Shown here: piece after piece, positions 25,332 to 51,826 of the stretch | Position numbering within the stretch: position 1 is the first letter of the stretch | Layout: every line of letters begins with the position of its first letter | Sequence record: PQ471516.1 | Origin: Escherichia phage Turkey5 | Length of the DNA stretch: 64,000 nucleotides | Direction: 5' to 3' (one strand) | Translations under genes and position numbers: made by a program | Notes under the pieces: generated by a model | Told to the model about the DNA's origin: nothing | What the model saw: the letters and a program-made list of their open reading frames with translations, nothing else | Databases searched by the model: none

Positions 25332-25570
25332 TGCATTACAAACATCTTCCAGAAATGGAATTCAGACGCATGTCCAAATCAATCAGACAAAAATACATTG
25401 CAACACAAAGGTACAACCTAAAGTACAAGCACAATATCCATGACGAACGATTGCTGTACGTAGTAGGGACCGAGTATCAGGATAGGGTTGTTAATTCATA
25501 TTTGTACGCCCTAAAAGAGTACATCCTATATCTTTGTAATAACACACAGCACATACAGGACATAAAATGA
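25331..25570 (+). CDS. family A paralog
   Basis: TAATG junction (alternative ATG 25322); motif VGTEYQDRVVNSYLYALKEYI. Confidence 0.75.
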   Translation: MHYKHLPEMEFRRMSKSIRQKYIATQRYNLKYKHNIHDERLLYVVGTEYQDRVVNSYLYALKEYILYLCNNTQHIQDIK

Positions 25571-25887
25571 AATTTAATATCCTAAGAGTATCAAAAAGAG
25601 CGATTTATGCATATGAGTTTAATTATGATCAATTTGATGTAGATATCATTTTGTACAAGAACCGTGAAGGTGAAATGCTTTTTAAGTACCAAAATAGTGA
25701 AGCAGATAATATTCCTTTACCGGATTTAACCAAAATGCAAGAGGATGAATTCTTTCAGCAGAGCTTAGTATACGATATTGATTTTTATAGTATAGATATT
25801 CTTTTAGCTTTACAGAAAAAGATGCACGAAATCTTTAATGATTTAGCCCAAGGCGATGATAGTGCAAGGTTCGTATTCAATGTTTAG
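25567..25887 (+). CDS. FQ-motif family paralog (family B, short class)
   Basis: ATGA overlap; motif EDEFFQQSLVYD. Confidence 0.8.
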   Translation: MKFNILRVSKRAIYAYEFNYDQFDVDIILYKNREGEMLFKYQNSEADNIPLPDLTKMQEDEFFQQSLVYDIDFYSIDILLALQKKMHEIFNDLAQGDDSARFVFNV

Positions 25888-26083
25888 AAACATAGATCCC
25901 AGTCAGTACGCAACCATGTACAGAGATTATTGGATGCAAAGTTCCAGTACCAAGTCCCTTGCGGAATTTCGTATGATATATTTTCTTGGTACAGAGAATC
26001 AAGAAGAAACGATGCTGGACTATCTTGAAGTACTAAAGGTTGAAGTACAAGATGAATACATATTAGGGGTTATAGAGCAGTGA
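25880..26083 (+). CDS. family A paralog
   Basis: ATG 25880 (alternative 25856); motif LGTENQEETMLDYLEVLKVEV. Confidence 0.75.
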   Translation: MFRNIDPSQYATMYRDYWMQSSSTKSLAEFRMIYFLGTENQEETMLDYLEVLKVEVQDEYILGVIEQ

Positions 26084-26574
26084 AATCGAGATTCGTTTCA
26101 GAGTTCAGTACAGATGCGGTGTACGCTAAGGATTTAGTACAGTTATTAATTACATTGCTCAAGGCTAAGGATAATTCAGAAGTTCAAGATTTGTGTAGTT
26201 CTTGTATCCGAGATGCAGGTGGTAATTTGTATATTAAGATAGATGGATTAGAACGTCTTATATATAAACAATCAAAATTCATCCAAAGTTGGACATACCT
26301 TGATTTTGACAGTACATATTCAGCGTACACAAAAAGAAGTACAAAAACCTTTTTTACAATCCAGGGTAAAACGTATAATTTGTTAAAAGAGCCATTAACA
26401 GAAGAAATGTATTTCCAGATGCAATGCTTAGGATTAAGTACAGAAGCGTTAAATGCTTATGTGCTTATTGATGCTATGGAATATTTAGATTTAGATAAGT
26501 ACGTTCCAGACGGATGGAGAATGTCTTTACCTTCGTTATTTGCAGTGTACAATACAATACATGGGGAACCTTAA
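26080..26574 (+). CDS. family B paralog (long class)
   Basis: GTGA overlap start; motif TEEMYFQMQCLG. Confidence 0.8.
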   Translation: MKSRFVSEFSTDAVYAKDLVQLLITLLKAKDNSEVQDLCSSCIRDAGGNLYIKIDGLERLIYKQSKFIQSWTYLDFDSTYSAYTKRSTKTFFTIQGKTYNLLKEPLTEEMYFQMQCLGLSTEALNAYVLIDAMEYLDLDKYVPDGWRMSLPSLFAVYNTIHGEP

Positions 26575-27085
26575 AGTGAATTTTAATGTAATTGATGTTC
26601 CTGAATTAGCAAAGAAGATTCAAACAATCCTGTACATAGGCAGTTCAATACGAAGTACAGGTGATTTCATCAGGACAGATAAAGTAAGAATGCAAGGTAT
26701 GCGTTCATCATATGATGTTAAAGGTATGTGCACATTTGATATGGTTTATACAAAATACGGAAAGGAAAAGAATGCAATATGTTTATTATCGTTTCCACCG
26801 AACCCTATAGCACCGAGAAATCCTAACAATACATTATGGTACGAGCAAGGTGCAGATACATTAGAGTTCAAGGGTACATTTTATGATGTAGAAGATATTC
26901 CAGCAACAGAAGAAGGAGCATTTCAGTACAGCCTATTGTATCCCGATGATGTAATATTTTATAAGAAGTTATTTTGGGAGTTAAACAATTTACCTCATTA
27001 CACCCCTAATTTTTCAATAGACCTTGAGTGCGTAGATACCGTATACGAAAGTTTAATGGAGTTCATTAGTTATGAAGTACAGTAA
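26561..27085 (+). CDS. family B paralog (long)
   Basis: start ambiguous (ATG 26561, or GTG 26576 with a GGGGA RBS); motif TEEGAFQYSLLY. Confidence 0.75.
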   Translation: MGNLKVNFNVIDVPELAKKIQTILYIGSSIRSTGDFIRTDKVRMQGMRSSYDVKGMCTFDMVYTKYGKEKNAICLLSFPPNPIAPRNPNNTLWYEQGADTLEFKGTFYDVEDIPATEEGAFQYSLLYPDDVIFYKKLFWELNNLPHYTPNFSIDLECVDTVYESLMEFISYEVQ

Positions 27086-27662
27086 TCCAGAAGAGACAGT
27101 ATTTGAGTACACATATGAAAATGCTGTAGAGCTTTGTACAAAATTAAAAGAAGTCCTTCAAATATACAATTCCATTGTAAATGACCCAAAGAATAAAGAT
27201 AAAAATGTAATCCAAGTAAATGCATTTTGTTCCATAAACATAGCAAAAGACCATTCAGAATTACAGGTCCATAAAACACAAGATAACGAGGACAAATTCA
27301 GATTCATCAGGAATTATCCAATATCAGATGTTTTATCATATCTTAGTTTTCCACCTGGTCCTTGTTTGAGTAAAGAAGATACGGATTCATTTTGGTATAA
27401 TAGTACATTCCAGTACATGGGTATTAATAACAAGGGTTCAGATGCAACGGACAGGATTGAAGTGAATCAAAGTCCTAAAAGCGAAGAGGAATTCTTTCAG
27501 TACAGTACCCTTATGCATCCAAGAACAATTTTTTATTCATGCGTTTTAGATGCGTTAGTTGAATTAAAGAGTTCAGGTTTAGATTTACCGCATTTACGTT
27601 TCAACCCACAGAGCATTCCTAGTGTGTGGGAAATGTTCAAGAACGAGCCGCCTGTGTCGTAA
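27072..27662 (+). CDS. family B paralog (long)
   Basis: motif SEEEFFQYSTLM; minus ORFs 27070..27279 and 27533..27925 rejected. Confidence 0.8.
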   Translation: MKYSNPEETVFEYTYENAVELCTKLKEVLQIYNSIVNDPKNKDKNVIQVNAFCSINIAKDHSELQVHKTQDNEDKFRFIRNYPISDVLSYLSFPPGPCLSKEDTDSFWYNSTFQYMGINNKGSDATDRIEVNQSPKSEEEFFQYSTLMHPRTIFYSCVLDALVELKSSGLDLPHLRFNPQSIPSVWEMFKNEPPVS

Positions 27663-27680
27663 GATACGGGCTTTTTTGTA

Positions 27681-27709
27681 TTGACAAACGCAAAAGTACC
27701 AAGTACAAT
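27681..27709 (+). promoter_or_regulatory. internal promoter (after a T-run)
   Basis: TTGACA 27681-17-TACAAT 27704; CTTTTTTG at 27670-27677. Confidence 0.6.
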
Positions 27710-50324: not shown

Positions 50325-50364
50325 CCAATGCACAGGGAGTGCGATAAAGGATCAAGGATAGATC

Positions 50365-50838
50365 ATGGAGACGAAAACTGTTGAGAACGGAAAGATAGAT
50401 GACATTTTAGATTTGGACGCATTTAAAGTTCATGATATAATGTTCAATGTTAAAGACATTATTCAGTGTCTTTTCTTATGTAGCAAAACTATGCATGACT
50501 ACTTTCACAACCCAAATACTAACATCTTTATACTTACTATTAGTACTGAAAACTCTTTCATCATGGGTATGCCTATGAGTACTAATGAAAAGTACATTGA
50601 TAGTGTAATCCGTAATAATGAGAACATAACCCCACAATCTGAAGTTCATAAAAAGAAAAACACTTATACAATTAAAGATGACAAGATAATGATGTGCTGC
50701 ACTAAAGGTTTCATCTTAGATAATTTTAAAATCAAAGATAGTTATCATGATTTTAGAGTATCGGAGAAACAAACTAATGTAGTTTTATATGCCACCGATA
50801 TTGAAAGCCTAACAGTTAAAGATCCTGATTTGGAGTAA
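50365..50838 (+). CDS. hypothetical protein (157 aa)
   Basis: AAGGA RBS; no family motif seen. Confidence 0.75.
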   Translation: METKTVENGKIDDILDLDAFKVHDIMFNVKDIIQCLFLCSKTMHDYFHNPNTNIFILTISTENSFIMGMPMSTNEKYIDSVIRNNENITPQSEVHKKKNTYTIKDDKIMMCCTKGFILDNFKIKDSYHDFRVSEKQTNVVLYATDIESLTVKDPDLE

Positions 50839-50840
50839 TT

Positions 50841-50972
50841 ATGGCTAAAAATGTAAACAACTTCGTTCAGAAACACATGAATGAGTTTAACAAACCTCAA
50901 ACCCATGTGGATCGCAAAAAAGCGATGAAGAATGGAAAAACAAAACACAAGTCGAGATATATTCTCGACTAA
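50841..50972 (+). CDS. small basic protein (43 aa, below track cutoff)
   Basis: GGAG RBS 5 nt before ATG 50841; MAKNVNNFVQKHMNEF...KHKSRYILD. Confidence 0.45.
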   Translation: MAKNVNNFVQKHMNEFNKPQTHVDRKKAMKNGKTKHKSRYILD

Positions 50973-50979
50973 TTTTTTT
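50951..50979 (+). terminator. rho-independent terminator
   Basis: GTCGAGA-TATAT-TCTCGAC then TAATTTTTTT. Confidence 0.6.
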
Positions 50980-50992
50980 GCCTGGAGAAAGT

Positions 50993-51826
50993 ATGAAAGA
51001 ATTTGATTACAAAAGTAAGTCAGTACTGGAATACATTGAATTACTAAATTCTAAAAATATTCCATTCGATGATACCAAGCTCCTTGGAAATGGAGATGAA
51101 AATTCATATAGTACTGAAAACTATGTAATCATTATTTCAAATGCAGCACCTGATATTGACATTACTGTACATAAGAAAAATAATACCGCAGTGTTTATGT
51201 ATACTCAAGATAGTAAATCAGAGTACTTACATTTCAGAGATATGAATTACTACAAAGAGAATGGTGAATTTATACTCAAATACAATGTACTAAAGAATAT
51301 CGAATTAAAAAAAGCCCGATACTTTGATGGTGCTTATGACGTTAAAAGTTCAGATAAGCTTTGTATATTCACAATGCATAAAAATGTAGAAAAAGACAAT
51401 GGATGGGTTGAATTTGAAACTAAGTTCAATGAACATGAAGTTTCAAATTTGTCAATACAAGAACGTTATGAAGGTTCAGATGTAGTGTGCAGTGCTGCTT
51501 ACTTTCGTGCATATGATGACAAAACGAAACGTATACAAATGCAAAACATTGACATTACGTTCAATGAAGGGTATAGTACTGTTACTATTTCTTCAGGATA
51601 TCGAAACAAGTTTACATTTGAGGTAGCAGTTCCAGACGGGTCAATACTACACATGTTTGACCCTGAATATATGTTCCAAGTTGAATTAACACTTGACACT
51701 GAGCAGTACGATAAATTACAATTTATTAGAAATTCAATCCAAGAAAAATTGGAATTATACCACTTACTAGGTGGAAAGAATCACAAAGCAACAATAGCAT
51801 TACAAAATATCAAAAGTAAAAGGTAG
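50993..51826 (+). CDS. family B-related large protein (277 aa)
   Basis: GGAGA RBS, ATG 50993; C-terminal motif DPEYMFQVELTL. Confidence 0.75.
   Translation: MKEFDYKSKSVLEYIELLNSKNIPFDDTKLLGNGDENSYSTENYVIIISNAAPDIDITVHKKNNTAVFMYTQDSKSEYLHFRDMNYYKENGEFILKYNVLKNIELKKARYFDGAYDVKSSDKLCIFTMHKNVEKDNGWVEFETKFNEHEVSNLSIQERYEGSDVVCSAAYFRAYDDKTKRIQMQNIDITFNEGYSTVTISSGYRNKFTFEVAVPDGSILHMFDPEYMFQVELTLDTEQYDKLQFIRNSIQEKLELYHLLGGKNHKATIALQNIKSKR

Follow-up and report, generated by a model that had tools for sequence, protein, structure and literature searches.

A tandem array of one unnamed protein domain in a jumbo coliphage

The stretch of Escherichia phage Turkey5 DNA analyzed here (PQ471516.1; 64,000 nucleotides, hereafter the window) carries, between positions 25567 and 50324, a tandem array of about 39 to 46 ancient paralogs of one previously unnamed small protein domain. 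Its members share a short signature centered on a Phe-Gln pair and are called the FQ family below. A first-pass annotation, made by a model from the letters of the DNA, had proposed that a single family fills much of this region, and the present analysis agreed that one family fills about 25 kb of the probable early region of a jumbo phage.

Judging from nucleotide comparison, the source of the window is an Asteriusvirus-type (RaK2-like) jumbo coliphage. Over positions 30000-42000 (12 kb), the identity to Escherichia phage vB_EcoM_JNE01 (355,583 bp; genus Asteriusvirus; JNE01 below) was 96.6%, and that for the window was 96-97%, elsewhere given as 96-98%. The same 12 kb gave only short matches of 77-80% with about 30 other Asteriusvirus or Salmonella jumbo phages. 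Every gene of the window lies on the + strand, and the G+C content is about 35%. The genes at the place of the array in JNE01, 121Q and phAPEC6 are all labelled 'hypothetical protein', with the exception of one 'amidohydrolase 3' in phAPEC6.

Membership of the family

BLAST joined the members only in small groups of 9, 5, 4, 2 and 2. An iterative hidden Markov model (HMM) search of the + strand open reading frames (ORFs) of the window converged at 44 ORFs. As this search also picked up 9 of 918 shuffled or reversed decoys, its E-values could not be trusted, and the candidates were examined by leave-one-out rescoring and by profile-profile comparison (hhalign) with controls. Each ORF was scored by an HMM built without that ORF and compared with 200 shuffles of its own sequence. 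This test placed 38 ORFs above every one of their own shuffles (z 6-26); the ORF 33431-33778 was borderline here, and an hhalign probability of 91% made it the 39th member. The HMM built from the members, a check proposed in the first-pass annotation, thus supported 39 robust members from 25567 to 50324. Seven extra ORFs have a recognizable but degraded motif at the expected place and were statistically inseparable from a control ORF in hhalign (28% for 28271-28882 and 26% for 60822-61511; 18% for the control 53004-53951). The ORF 23273-23641 was rejected as a member, as it is without FQ although the iterative HMM had recruited it.

The earlier count of about 45 paralogs comprising almost every gene was therefore right in assuming one family, but it merged the 39 robust members with about seven marginal ones and overlooked about 12 ORFs in the array interval that are non-members. 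The proposed extent of 25567-51826 was retained at its start only: the robust array stops at 50324, the ORF 50365-50838 is a non-member, and 50978-51826 is at best a very divergent one. The outlier suggested at 60822-61511 indeed carries the motif (TEEEHFQTLMF), but its statistics are marginal (z 3.3; hhalign 26%, no better than one control). The two size classes were borne out, with 12 short members of 106-131 aa and the remaining members of 145-198 aa. The members are acidic, showing a median isoelectric point of 4.8 and a net charge of -9.5, compared with 6.3 and -1 for the other ORFs.

The members and marginal candidates are as follows (z, leave-one-out score).
25567-25887 (+): short class, 106 aa, EDEFFQQSLVY, z 20.0
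26080-26574 (+): long class, 164 aa, z 14.0
26540-27085 (+): long class, TTG start probably over-extended, z 25.9
27072-27662 (+): long class, 196 aa, z 15.7
27740-28261 (+): long class, z 8.1
28271-28882 (+): marginal, 203 aa, LDSFLFQQQMF at residue 143, z 1.6, hhalign 28%
29112-29504 (+): short class, 130 aa, z 10.9
30271-30639 (+): short class, z 13.3
30639-31115 (+): long class, 158 aa, AlphaFold model 1, z 24.4
31115-31468 (+): short class, 117 aa, AlphaFold model 2, z 10.7
31468-31905 (+): long class, 145 aa, phrog_9317, z 19.9
31908-32387 (+): long class, z 18.3
32397-32945 (+): long class, z 8.1
32945-33427 (+): long class, z 17.5
33431-33778 (+): short class, z 4.3, hhalign 91%
33782-34162 (+): short class, 126 aa, z 17.8
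34459-34833 (+): short class, TTG start probably over-extended, real start probably 3' of the promoter, z 15.7
34834-35298 (+): long class, FYLDLD strand, z 11.8
35295-35831 (+): marginal, 178 aa, EEQCFQLRC, z 3.9 (below the best shuffle), hhalign 9%
36024-36524 (+): long class, z 16.6
36511-37053 (+): long class, z 12.1
37034-37384 (+): short class, no nucleotide match in JNE01, z 9.4
37386-37754 (+): short class, z 15.2
38237-38590 (+): short class, z 16.8
38584-39171 (+): long class, motif variant FFMHSTLY, z 14.6
39232-39705 (+): long class, motif variant YFMNLFLF, FYMDLD strand, z 7.7
39662-40186 (+): long class, TTG start probably over-extended, z 6.9
40176-40517 (+): short class, z 9.3
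40521-40916 (+): short class, 131 aa, z 19.5
40917-41384 (+): long class, z 20.1
41381-41926 (+): long class, z 14.6
41913-42431 (+): long class, z 15.5
42521-43060 (+): long class, z 10.8
43047-43616 (+): long class, z 10.4
43609-44187 (+): long class, z 13.1
44725-45180 (+): long class, motif variant LYLQYSSTY, z 7.5
45173-45658 (+): long class, z 11.1
45658-46239 (+): long class, z 12.7
46276-46860 (+): long class, real start probably ATG 46306 after AGGAGG, z 6.1
47454-48050 (+): marginal, 198 aa, NERIFQKSTVQ, z 3.0, hhalign 6%
48444-48977 (+): long class, z 13.4
48970-49443 (+): marginal, 157 aa, EAVFFTQSTCF (one-residue insertion in the motif), z 3.1
49391-49849 (+): marginal, 152 aa, EIDFFQYECIG, z 3.1
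49815-50324 (+): long class, last robust member of the array, z 7.1
50978-51826 (+): doubtful, very divergent candidate by motif only, 282 aa, PEYMFQVELTL at residue 232, z 1.8, hhalign 0.9%
60822-61511 (+): marginal outlier, 229 aa, TEEEHFQTLMF, phrog_32531, z 3.3, hhalign 26%

The first-TTG or first-GTG starts at 26540, 30271, 34459, 39662, 46276 and 49815 are probably too far upstream, because they extend 35-55 nt into the preceding gene or across a promoter. The non-members within the interval are listed below.
25856-26083 and 35828-36037 (+): ORFs of another small family
29489-30325 (+): four small ORFs
34164-34475, 37735-38277 and 44105-44728 (+): non-member ORFs
46862-47476, 48053-48469 and 50365-50838 (+): non-member ORFs

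The conserved motif

Of the 57 ORFs located at 25.5-51 kb, 24 contain the strict form of the motif, FQ.[SC][TL][LVI]; it is absent from the other 96 ORFs of the window, and shuffled sequences gave a mean of 0.06 ± 0.23 and a maximum of 1. The motif therefore far exceeds the shuffled controls against which the first-pass annotation had proposed to judge it. Its relative position in the protein has a median of 0.66 (interquartile range 0.60-0.70), in agreement with the earlier description of a signature about two-thirds along the protein. Phe and Gln are invariant in an alignment of 58 sequences and at least 90% conserved in that of the 39 members. A FY[LM]DLD element, said to follow often, was explicit in about five to eight members; in the others a looser aromatic β-strand takes its place.

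At the nucleotide level, the Phe codon of the motif is TTT in 23 cases and TTC in 17, the Gln codon is CAG in 34 and CAA in 6, and the third-position identity is 0.38. The motif codons themselves were the only DNA repeats found in the region. This synonymous variation rules out a DNA-level repeat or gene-conversion tract behind the motif and, together with the lack of other DNA repeats, indicates that conservation acts on the protein.

The form E-E-x-Y-F-Q-x-S, seen for example at 30939-30974 and in the homologs P0038, P0055 and P0058, resembles the cleavage site of tobacco etch virus (TEV) protease, E-x-x-Y-x-Q|(G/S), and homologs reading EEGYFQGS or EEVYFQGS exist. Since the motif is predicted to be helical and folded, this likeness is probably a coincidence. 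It is nevertheless a practical caution for purification with TEV-cleavable tags.

Predicted structure of the domain

AlphaFold2 models were built for the long member 30639-31115, with the 39-member alignment, and for the short member 31115-31468, with the 58-sequence alignment. The predicted local distance difference test score (pLDDT) and the predicted template modelling score (pTM) were 78 and 0.73 for the long member and 77 and 0.70 for the short one. In the former model, an N-terminal helix (residues 3-22) and a low-confidence insert (27-56) precede four β-strands, a helix (101-107) holding F105 and Q106, the next helix (113-126), a strand (133-137) corresponding to the 'FVYLSL / FYLDLD' element, and a C-terminal helix; the pLDDT is highest in the motif region. 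The latter model has five strands, a helix (65-78) with F69 and Q70, a helix (83-99) and a strand (107-112). Common to both is a core of a sheet, two helices and a returning strand. The domain is thus predicted to be a two-layer α/β unit composed of an antiparallel β-sheet, the motif helix, a second helix and a final β-strand, to which the long members add the N-terminal helix, the variable insert and the C-terminal helix. The motif helix carries the near-invariant [ST]-E-E-x-[YF]-F-Q-x-S-[TL]-[LVI]-[YWH], and the acidic run forms its first turn in the models. Conserved hydrophobic residues at -1, 0, +4, +5 and +6 relative to Phe encircle the helix; as they lie on almost all of its faces, the motif may well be the structural nucleus of the fold.

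A structure search with one short and one long model had been suggested as a check. Foldseek against viral models (BFVD) matched only uncharacterized proteins of the phages 121Q, SP27, RaK2, GAP32, fHe-Yen9-04 (Yersinia) and Serratia phage BF. No relative was found in the PDB, either by sequence profile (best E-value 0.09) or by fold.

Database searches and distribution of the family

None of the 39 members matched Pfam at E ≤ 0.01, NCBIfam gave just two single-member chance matches (E about 0.004), and PADLOC gave no match for 10 members at E ≤ 0.01. The initial impression that the proteins contain no known domain therefore withstood the profile searches. Against PHROGs, the 39 members matched 27 entries and hence at least 27 families, each labelled 'unknown function'; the strongest match was to phrog_9317 (E-value 3.9e-42). 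These entries (phrog_9317, 12674, 13866, 15629, 34600, 19795 and about 20 others) represent the same proteins from 121Q, PBECO4 and RaK2-type phages. PHROGs differs from the present grouping in treating them as at least 27 separate families without function, with the shared FQ helix, the common fold and the scale of the array not recorded.

A search of the family HMM against wide databases, also proposed beforehand, was productive. An exhaustive HMMER search of 1.84 billion representative proteins (E ≤ 0.001) detected 145 clusters at 50% identity, all of 89-215 aa except two low-complexity giants. In nearly all of them, [ST]EEE.[YF]FQ.S[TL][LVI][YWH] recurs at an unchanged relative position. 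Phe and Gln are invariant, and E-E and S/T strongly conserved, in about 140 clusters whose identity is otherwise about 13-15%. The matches usually cover profile positions 1-150, indicating that the homology spans the whole protein. The N-terminal halves, earlier described as unrelated to one another, are consequently divergent rather than unrelated, and the long members share an N-terminal helix of the form MS[LF]E.A[LF]E... When the family profile was run against 5.8 billion proteins in a word-indexed search, just five matches were returned.

The relatives with a traceable source come from RaK2-like jumbo phages and mostly form arrays. The window-derived HMM identified 48 ORFs in the syntenic locus of 121Q and 44 in phAPEC6, and arrays were also present on metagenomic jumbo-phage contigs. 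A short-class homolog of 99 aa (P0124, EEDELFQYSLLY) occurs as a lone copy in a temperate-phage-like element, where genes for a serine recombinase and a helicase-like protein, a GIY-YIG (T5orf172) gene and an HNH gene surround it and lambda-type terminase and portal genes follow downstream. Scanning genomes for the P0124 homolog gave no match.
L004 6972-7271 and L005 5242-5541: single-copy short-class homolog of the P0124 type, 99 aa

In a metagenomic jumbo-phage relative, a gene of the Gad2 (anti-Gabija) family (PF26128; L007 18359-19402) is located about 8 kb 3' of the array, beside Dam. No Gad2 was present among those window ORFs that were scanned against Pfam. By association, the contexts of P0124 and Gad2 are typical of accessory or counter-defence regions.

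Of the phage group as a whole, 83% of the genes are without known function (PMC7247149). In the papers searched, the one statement bearing on the family is that paralogs make up about 10% of the RaK2 proteins (PMC3622015). The family itself is not described in the RaK2, fEgEco12, Sharanji and phAPEC6 papers or in two 2026 reviews, as far as keyword-matched passages show, nor is it mentioned in such passages of a comparative survey of 224 jumbo phages (PMC7824862). Accordingly, the genes as unknowns in GenBank and PHROGs, and paralog expansions in jumbo phages as such, are already known. What is new is the recognition that these genes form a single superfamily marked by a diagnostic invariant motif, together with the size of that superfamily and its lack of any structural relative.

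Evolution of the array

The identity between paralogs has a median of 15% and a maximum of 36%, indicating that the expansion is old. In the comparison with JNE01, all 43 comparable members keep open frames, and the ratio of nonsynonymous to synonymous substitution rates (dN/dS), pooled over 43 genes, was 0.27 (0.17 for the other ORFs). This ratio indicates that the genes are coding and under purifying selection. Positive selection, as a pooled dN/dS above 1 against JNE01, was not found; the value approached 1 in three genes only, each with very few substitutions. One member, 37034-37384, has no nucleotide match in JNE01 and represents a presence/absence difference between close relatives.

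Gene order is kept in the more distant 121Q, where 29 of 44 members have reciprocal best hits with 21-56% identity. Conserved neighbors such as Dam, a cytidylyltransferase-like gene and Rnl1 are 80-100% identical between the two phages. At the nucleotide level, other Asteriusviruses cover 2-9% of the array, as against 55-63% of the next 12 kb. Between 121Q orthologs, the 16 residues around FQ are the least changed (43% differ versus 64-69% elsewhere), and the segment just N-terminal to this FQ window is the most changed. The fixed core with free-running flanks that had been described is thus real with respect to rate, but the flanks are homologous over their whole length. The array constitutes a multigene family, with tandem paralogs in a hypervariable region and copies whose presence differs between strains. 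The further suggestion of a diversified variant library, in the sense of ongoing diversification, was not upheld: the paralogs are ancient (15% median and 36% maximum identity), most have positional orthologs in 121Q, and dN/dS is 0.27. Two gene junctions (30613-30662 and 31442-31491) are each spanned by a copy of a 50-nt direct repeat with 88% identity, indicating that a short and a long gene were duplicated as one unit.

Operon organization and expression signals

Most genes abut or overlap, as noticed before, with gaps of -1, -4 and 0-3 nt, and Shine-Dalgarno-like sequences precede most starts. From this layout, the array genes are arranged in what appear to be about six tightly packed operons, delimited by the following predicted signals.
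25037-25065 (+): σ70-like promoter (11/12) upstream of the operon holding the first member
27650-27709 (+): terminator hairpin (27650-27671), then σ70-like promoter TTGACA-17-TACAAT (27681-27709)
34478-34505 (+): σ70-like promoter, 12/12, TTGACA-16-TATAAT, TG-extended
39168-39197 (+): σ70-like promoter, 11/12, TTGACC-18-TATAAT
42430-42490 (+): terminator hairpin (42430-42447), then σ70-like promoter TTTACA-17-TATAAT (42462-42490)
46246-46285 (+): terminator hairpin (46246-46269) overlapping a weaker promoter-like site, TTGACT-17-TACTAT (46257; 9/12)

Five internal boundaries, each a terminator/promoter pair, had been proposed. Promoter-like sites were present at all of them, that at 46257 being weaker, but hairpins only at 27650, 42430 and 46246. 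The sites at 25037, 27681, 34478, 39168 and 42462 match 11-12 of the 12 consensus positions and fall in gaps. Of the 54 strong promoter-like sites on the + strand, 32 are located in the 11.5% of the window without ORF cover. Dense consensus promoters are also a feature of the first 20 kb. Here (1-20000) the genes are small and mostly single, each lying 30-57 nt 3' of a perfect or near-perfect σ70 site (TTGACA-16/17-TATAAT), which suggests a dense early region.
2748, 10135, 10720, 11831 and 13566 (+): 12/12 σ70 matches
13925, 14196, 14626, 17055 and 18582 (+): 12/12 σ70 matches

With such promoters in the gaps and in the first 20 kb, the region looks like an early region read by the host RNA polymerase, and the operons of the array would accordingly be transcribed early in infection from near-consensus σ70 promoters. 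With respect to the products, the array orthologs in phAPEC6 are gp404c-gp466c, and none of these is among the 62 proteins of the phAPEC6 virion proteome (PMC7247149, Table 1).

Other genes in the window

A second paralog family lies at 20522-25570, directly 5' of the FQ array; it comprises about 20 very small ORFs of 72-88 aa whose N-termini resemble MK.LS..EY, and two copies lie inside the array (25856-26083 and 35828-36037). It had no Pfam match, and its 121Q orthologs are 27-70% identical. Three adjacent ORFs at 57454-58283 (90-101 aa) are mutual paralogs forming a BLAST cluster, with weak 121Q orthologs. The 315-aa ORF 53004-53951, the hhalign control above, has DDLTFQFMLLG at residue 78 followed by a low-complexity linker rich in Ser, Glu and Arg; with an hhalign probability of 18%, this ORF is possibly a divergent member joined to a different domain. 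The following 674 bp (53952-54625) are without a + strand ORF of at least 60 aa. No tRNA or Rfam family was found across the window. Three genes identified by Pfam were 82-86% identical to their counterparts in 121Q.
55185-55712 (+): Dam-type N6-adenine methyltransferase (Pfam E 2.7e-33)
55709-56248 (+): weakly matching cytidylyltransferase-like ORF
61771-62913 (+): T4 Rnl1-type RNA ligase

Possible functions of the array

The reading we favor, tentatively and with a little less than even confidence, is that the proteins are early cytoplasmic binders that serve host takeover or counter-defence. As a panel of acidic cytoplasmic proteins, the paralogs would each bind and block a different protein of the host or of a competing element. 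The β-sheet and loops would diverge freely around the fixed motif helix. Such a panel would be old and keep its gene order across phage lineages, while drifting quickly under arms-race-like pressure. The σ70 promoters, the acidity, the absence from the virion, the fast divergence of orthologs and the copy difference to JNE01 are consistent with an inhibitor or decoy role and do not prove it; the functional part of this reading is speculation.

Several observations weigh against this reading. Pfam, NCBIfam, PADLOC and the PDB, by sequence and by fold, connect no member with a target or an activity. The dN/dS of 0.27 and the ancient origin of the paralogs speak against fast diversification at present. 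The high divergence from 121Q is common to other small early ORFs, such as the second small family (27-70%), and is thus not specific to the FQ family. An invariant polar Gln and a conserved acidic run might belong to a functional site instead of a structural core, and the AlphaFold models are of moderate confidence and were built on shallow alignments of 39 and 58 sequences. The early timing is suggested by consensus promoter matches as its sole basis, and a transcriptome of this phage group was not found in the literature on jumbo or RaK2-like phages.

The same Gln leads to a different explanation, namely an adaptor family in which the acidic-Phe-Gln helix docks one shared partner, such as a host protease, a chaperone, RNA polymerase or a phage protein, and the sheet and N-terminal parts pick the cargo, in a manner likened to the F-box/BTB families of large eukaryotic viruses. 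A core of purely structural role would not usually conserve a polar residue, the motif window evolves more slowly between orthologs than the rest of the protein, and F, Q, E-E and S/T persist across about 140 clusters at about 13-15% identity. However, the conserved hydrophobic residues round FQ encircle the helix almost completely, suggesting a buried segment more than an exposed docking surface, and the motif region has the highest pLDDT in the long-member model. In addition, no fused or co-occurring partner gene was found, all relatives being stand-alone proteins of 89-215 aa. We consider such adaptors unlikely. A particular version, in which all paralogs dock one cellular machine such as an AAA+ protease or chaperone while the β-sheet face captures differing host defence or housekeeping proteins, appears distinctly improbable. 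The paralogs might instead neutralize toxins or nucleases of competing phages, plasmids, bacteriocins or abortive-infection effectors, as a poly-immunity-like array or for superinfection exclusion. Small acidic α/β proteins in a long tandem array would fit this possibility, as would the single-copy short-class homolog in the accessory region of a temperate element beside serine recombinase, GIY-YIG and HNH genes. It is nonetheless quite unlikely in our estimate: cognate toxin genes are absent from the array, and no fold or profile similarity to SUKH-type or other immunity superfamilies was found. The idea also overlaps largely with that of early binders of host or competitor proteins and is not separable from it on the present data.

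It could also be argued that the array is largely dispensable ballast, an old expansion tolerated by jumbo capsids and having little or redundant function. Genes without known function make up 83% of this phage group (PMC7247149), paralogs account for about 10% of the RaK2 proteins (PMC3622015), JNE01 lacks one copy, and the dN/dS of the family (0.27) is somewhat higher than that of other ORFs (0.17). Nevertheless, all 43 comparable copies are open and under purifying selection, and the array keeps its gene order in 121Q and phAPEC6 even though its proteins have diverged by 45-80%. Distant phages share the invariant motif, and strong promoters and ribosome-binding sites are kept, so that ballast is also a distinctly improbable account. 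Processing by a protease or packaging, with the TEV-type motif as a cleavage or targeting signal as in T4 internal proteins, has in its favor the fit of the residues to E-x-x-Y-x-Q|(G/S) and the homologs with EEGYFQGS and EEVYFQGS. The motif, however, lies mid-domain in a confidently predicted helix, the residue after Q (P1') is variable, and no family member is among the phAPEC6 virion proteins. Nor did a Gln-specific protease turn up in the window ORFs scanned against Pfam. The TEV-site reading was rejected on the grounds of the helical and folded nature of the motif, the variable P1' and the lack of a cognate protease among the scanned ORFs. A T4-type capsid-targeting N-terminus was not matched either, the motif being internal (0.66) and helical and the N-termini differing between the size classes; processing or packaging is thus highly improbable. 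That the signature reflects chance or a DNA-level repeat and no protein family is barely conceivable: the iterative HMM did recruit some shuffled decoys, but the leave-one-out scores, the shuffles, the matches in 121Q and in the 1.84-billion set, the synonymous variation and the concordant models all contradict it.

Comparison with known systems

Multigene families of eukaryotic DNA viruses, such as MGF110/360/505 of African swine fever virus (ASFV) and the ankyrin, BTB-kelch and Bcl-2-like families of poxviruses, resemble the FQ array in comprising tandem, old and divergent paralogs with a small conserved core. Both kinds are non-structural, occupy variable genome regions and differ between strains. 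The ASFV and poxvirus families act in host range and immune evasion. They have no sequence or fold relation to the FQ array, whose host is bacterial. Host-takeover modules of bacteriophages (SPO1 gp37-60; the early or pre-early small genes of T4 and T5) are likewise tight clusters of small genes; they lie behind strong host-type early promoters, to which the perfect TTGACA-16/17-TATAAT sites predicted in the window are comparable. Their genes are mostly of unknown function, and their products act on host proteins; these modules consist of mostly unrelated genes, in contrast to about 40 copies of one domain in the FQ array. Ocr and ArdA, acidic DNA-mimic anti-restriction proteins, are small, strongly acidic early phage proteins and in this resemble the FQ members, which are probably early too, but no fold or sequence similarity to them was found, and the acidity of the FQ family is moderate. 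A β-sheet platform topped by helices, as in the major histocompatibility complex-like platforms of viral decoys (such as OMCP of cowpox virus, m152 and UL18), the polo-box and the ATP-grasp subdomain, was among the closest systems named. According to the jumbo-phage survey, Bacillus phage G has about 35 zinc-ribbon copies (PMC7824862), a number like that of the FQ array; the domain is different, as the FQ domain is no nucleic-acid-binding zinc ribbon.

Implications

A single family, unnamed in databases and with a fold that lacks a solved relative, takes up about 7% of a 355-kb phage genome and an equal proportion in more than 30 sequenced relatives. These relatives have been employed or suggested as therapeutic agents against E. 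coli, Salmonella and Klebsiella. Treating about 27 scattered 'unknown' PHROGs as one superfamily provides annotators with one profile, and the six operons are a defined target that can be subdivided for asking what use jumbo phages make of their extra DNA. If the members are indeed binders for counter-defence or takeover, the array would offer a wealth of new inhibitors. Should they be adaptors to one common machine, they would represent a new principle for phages, a counterpart of the F-box/BTB receptors of eukaryotic viruses.

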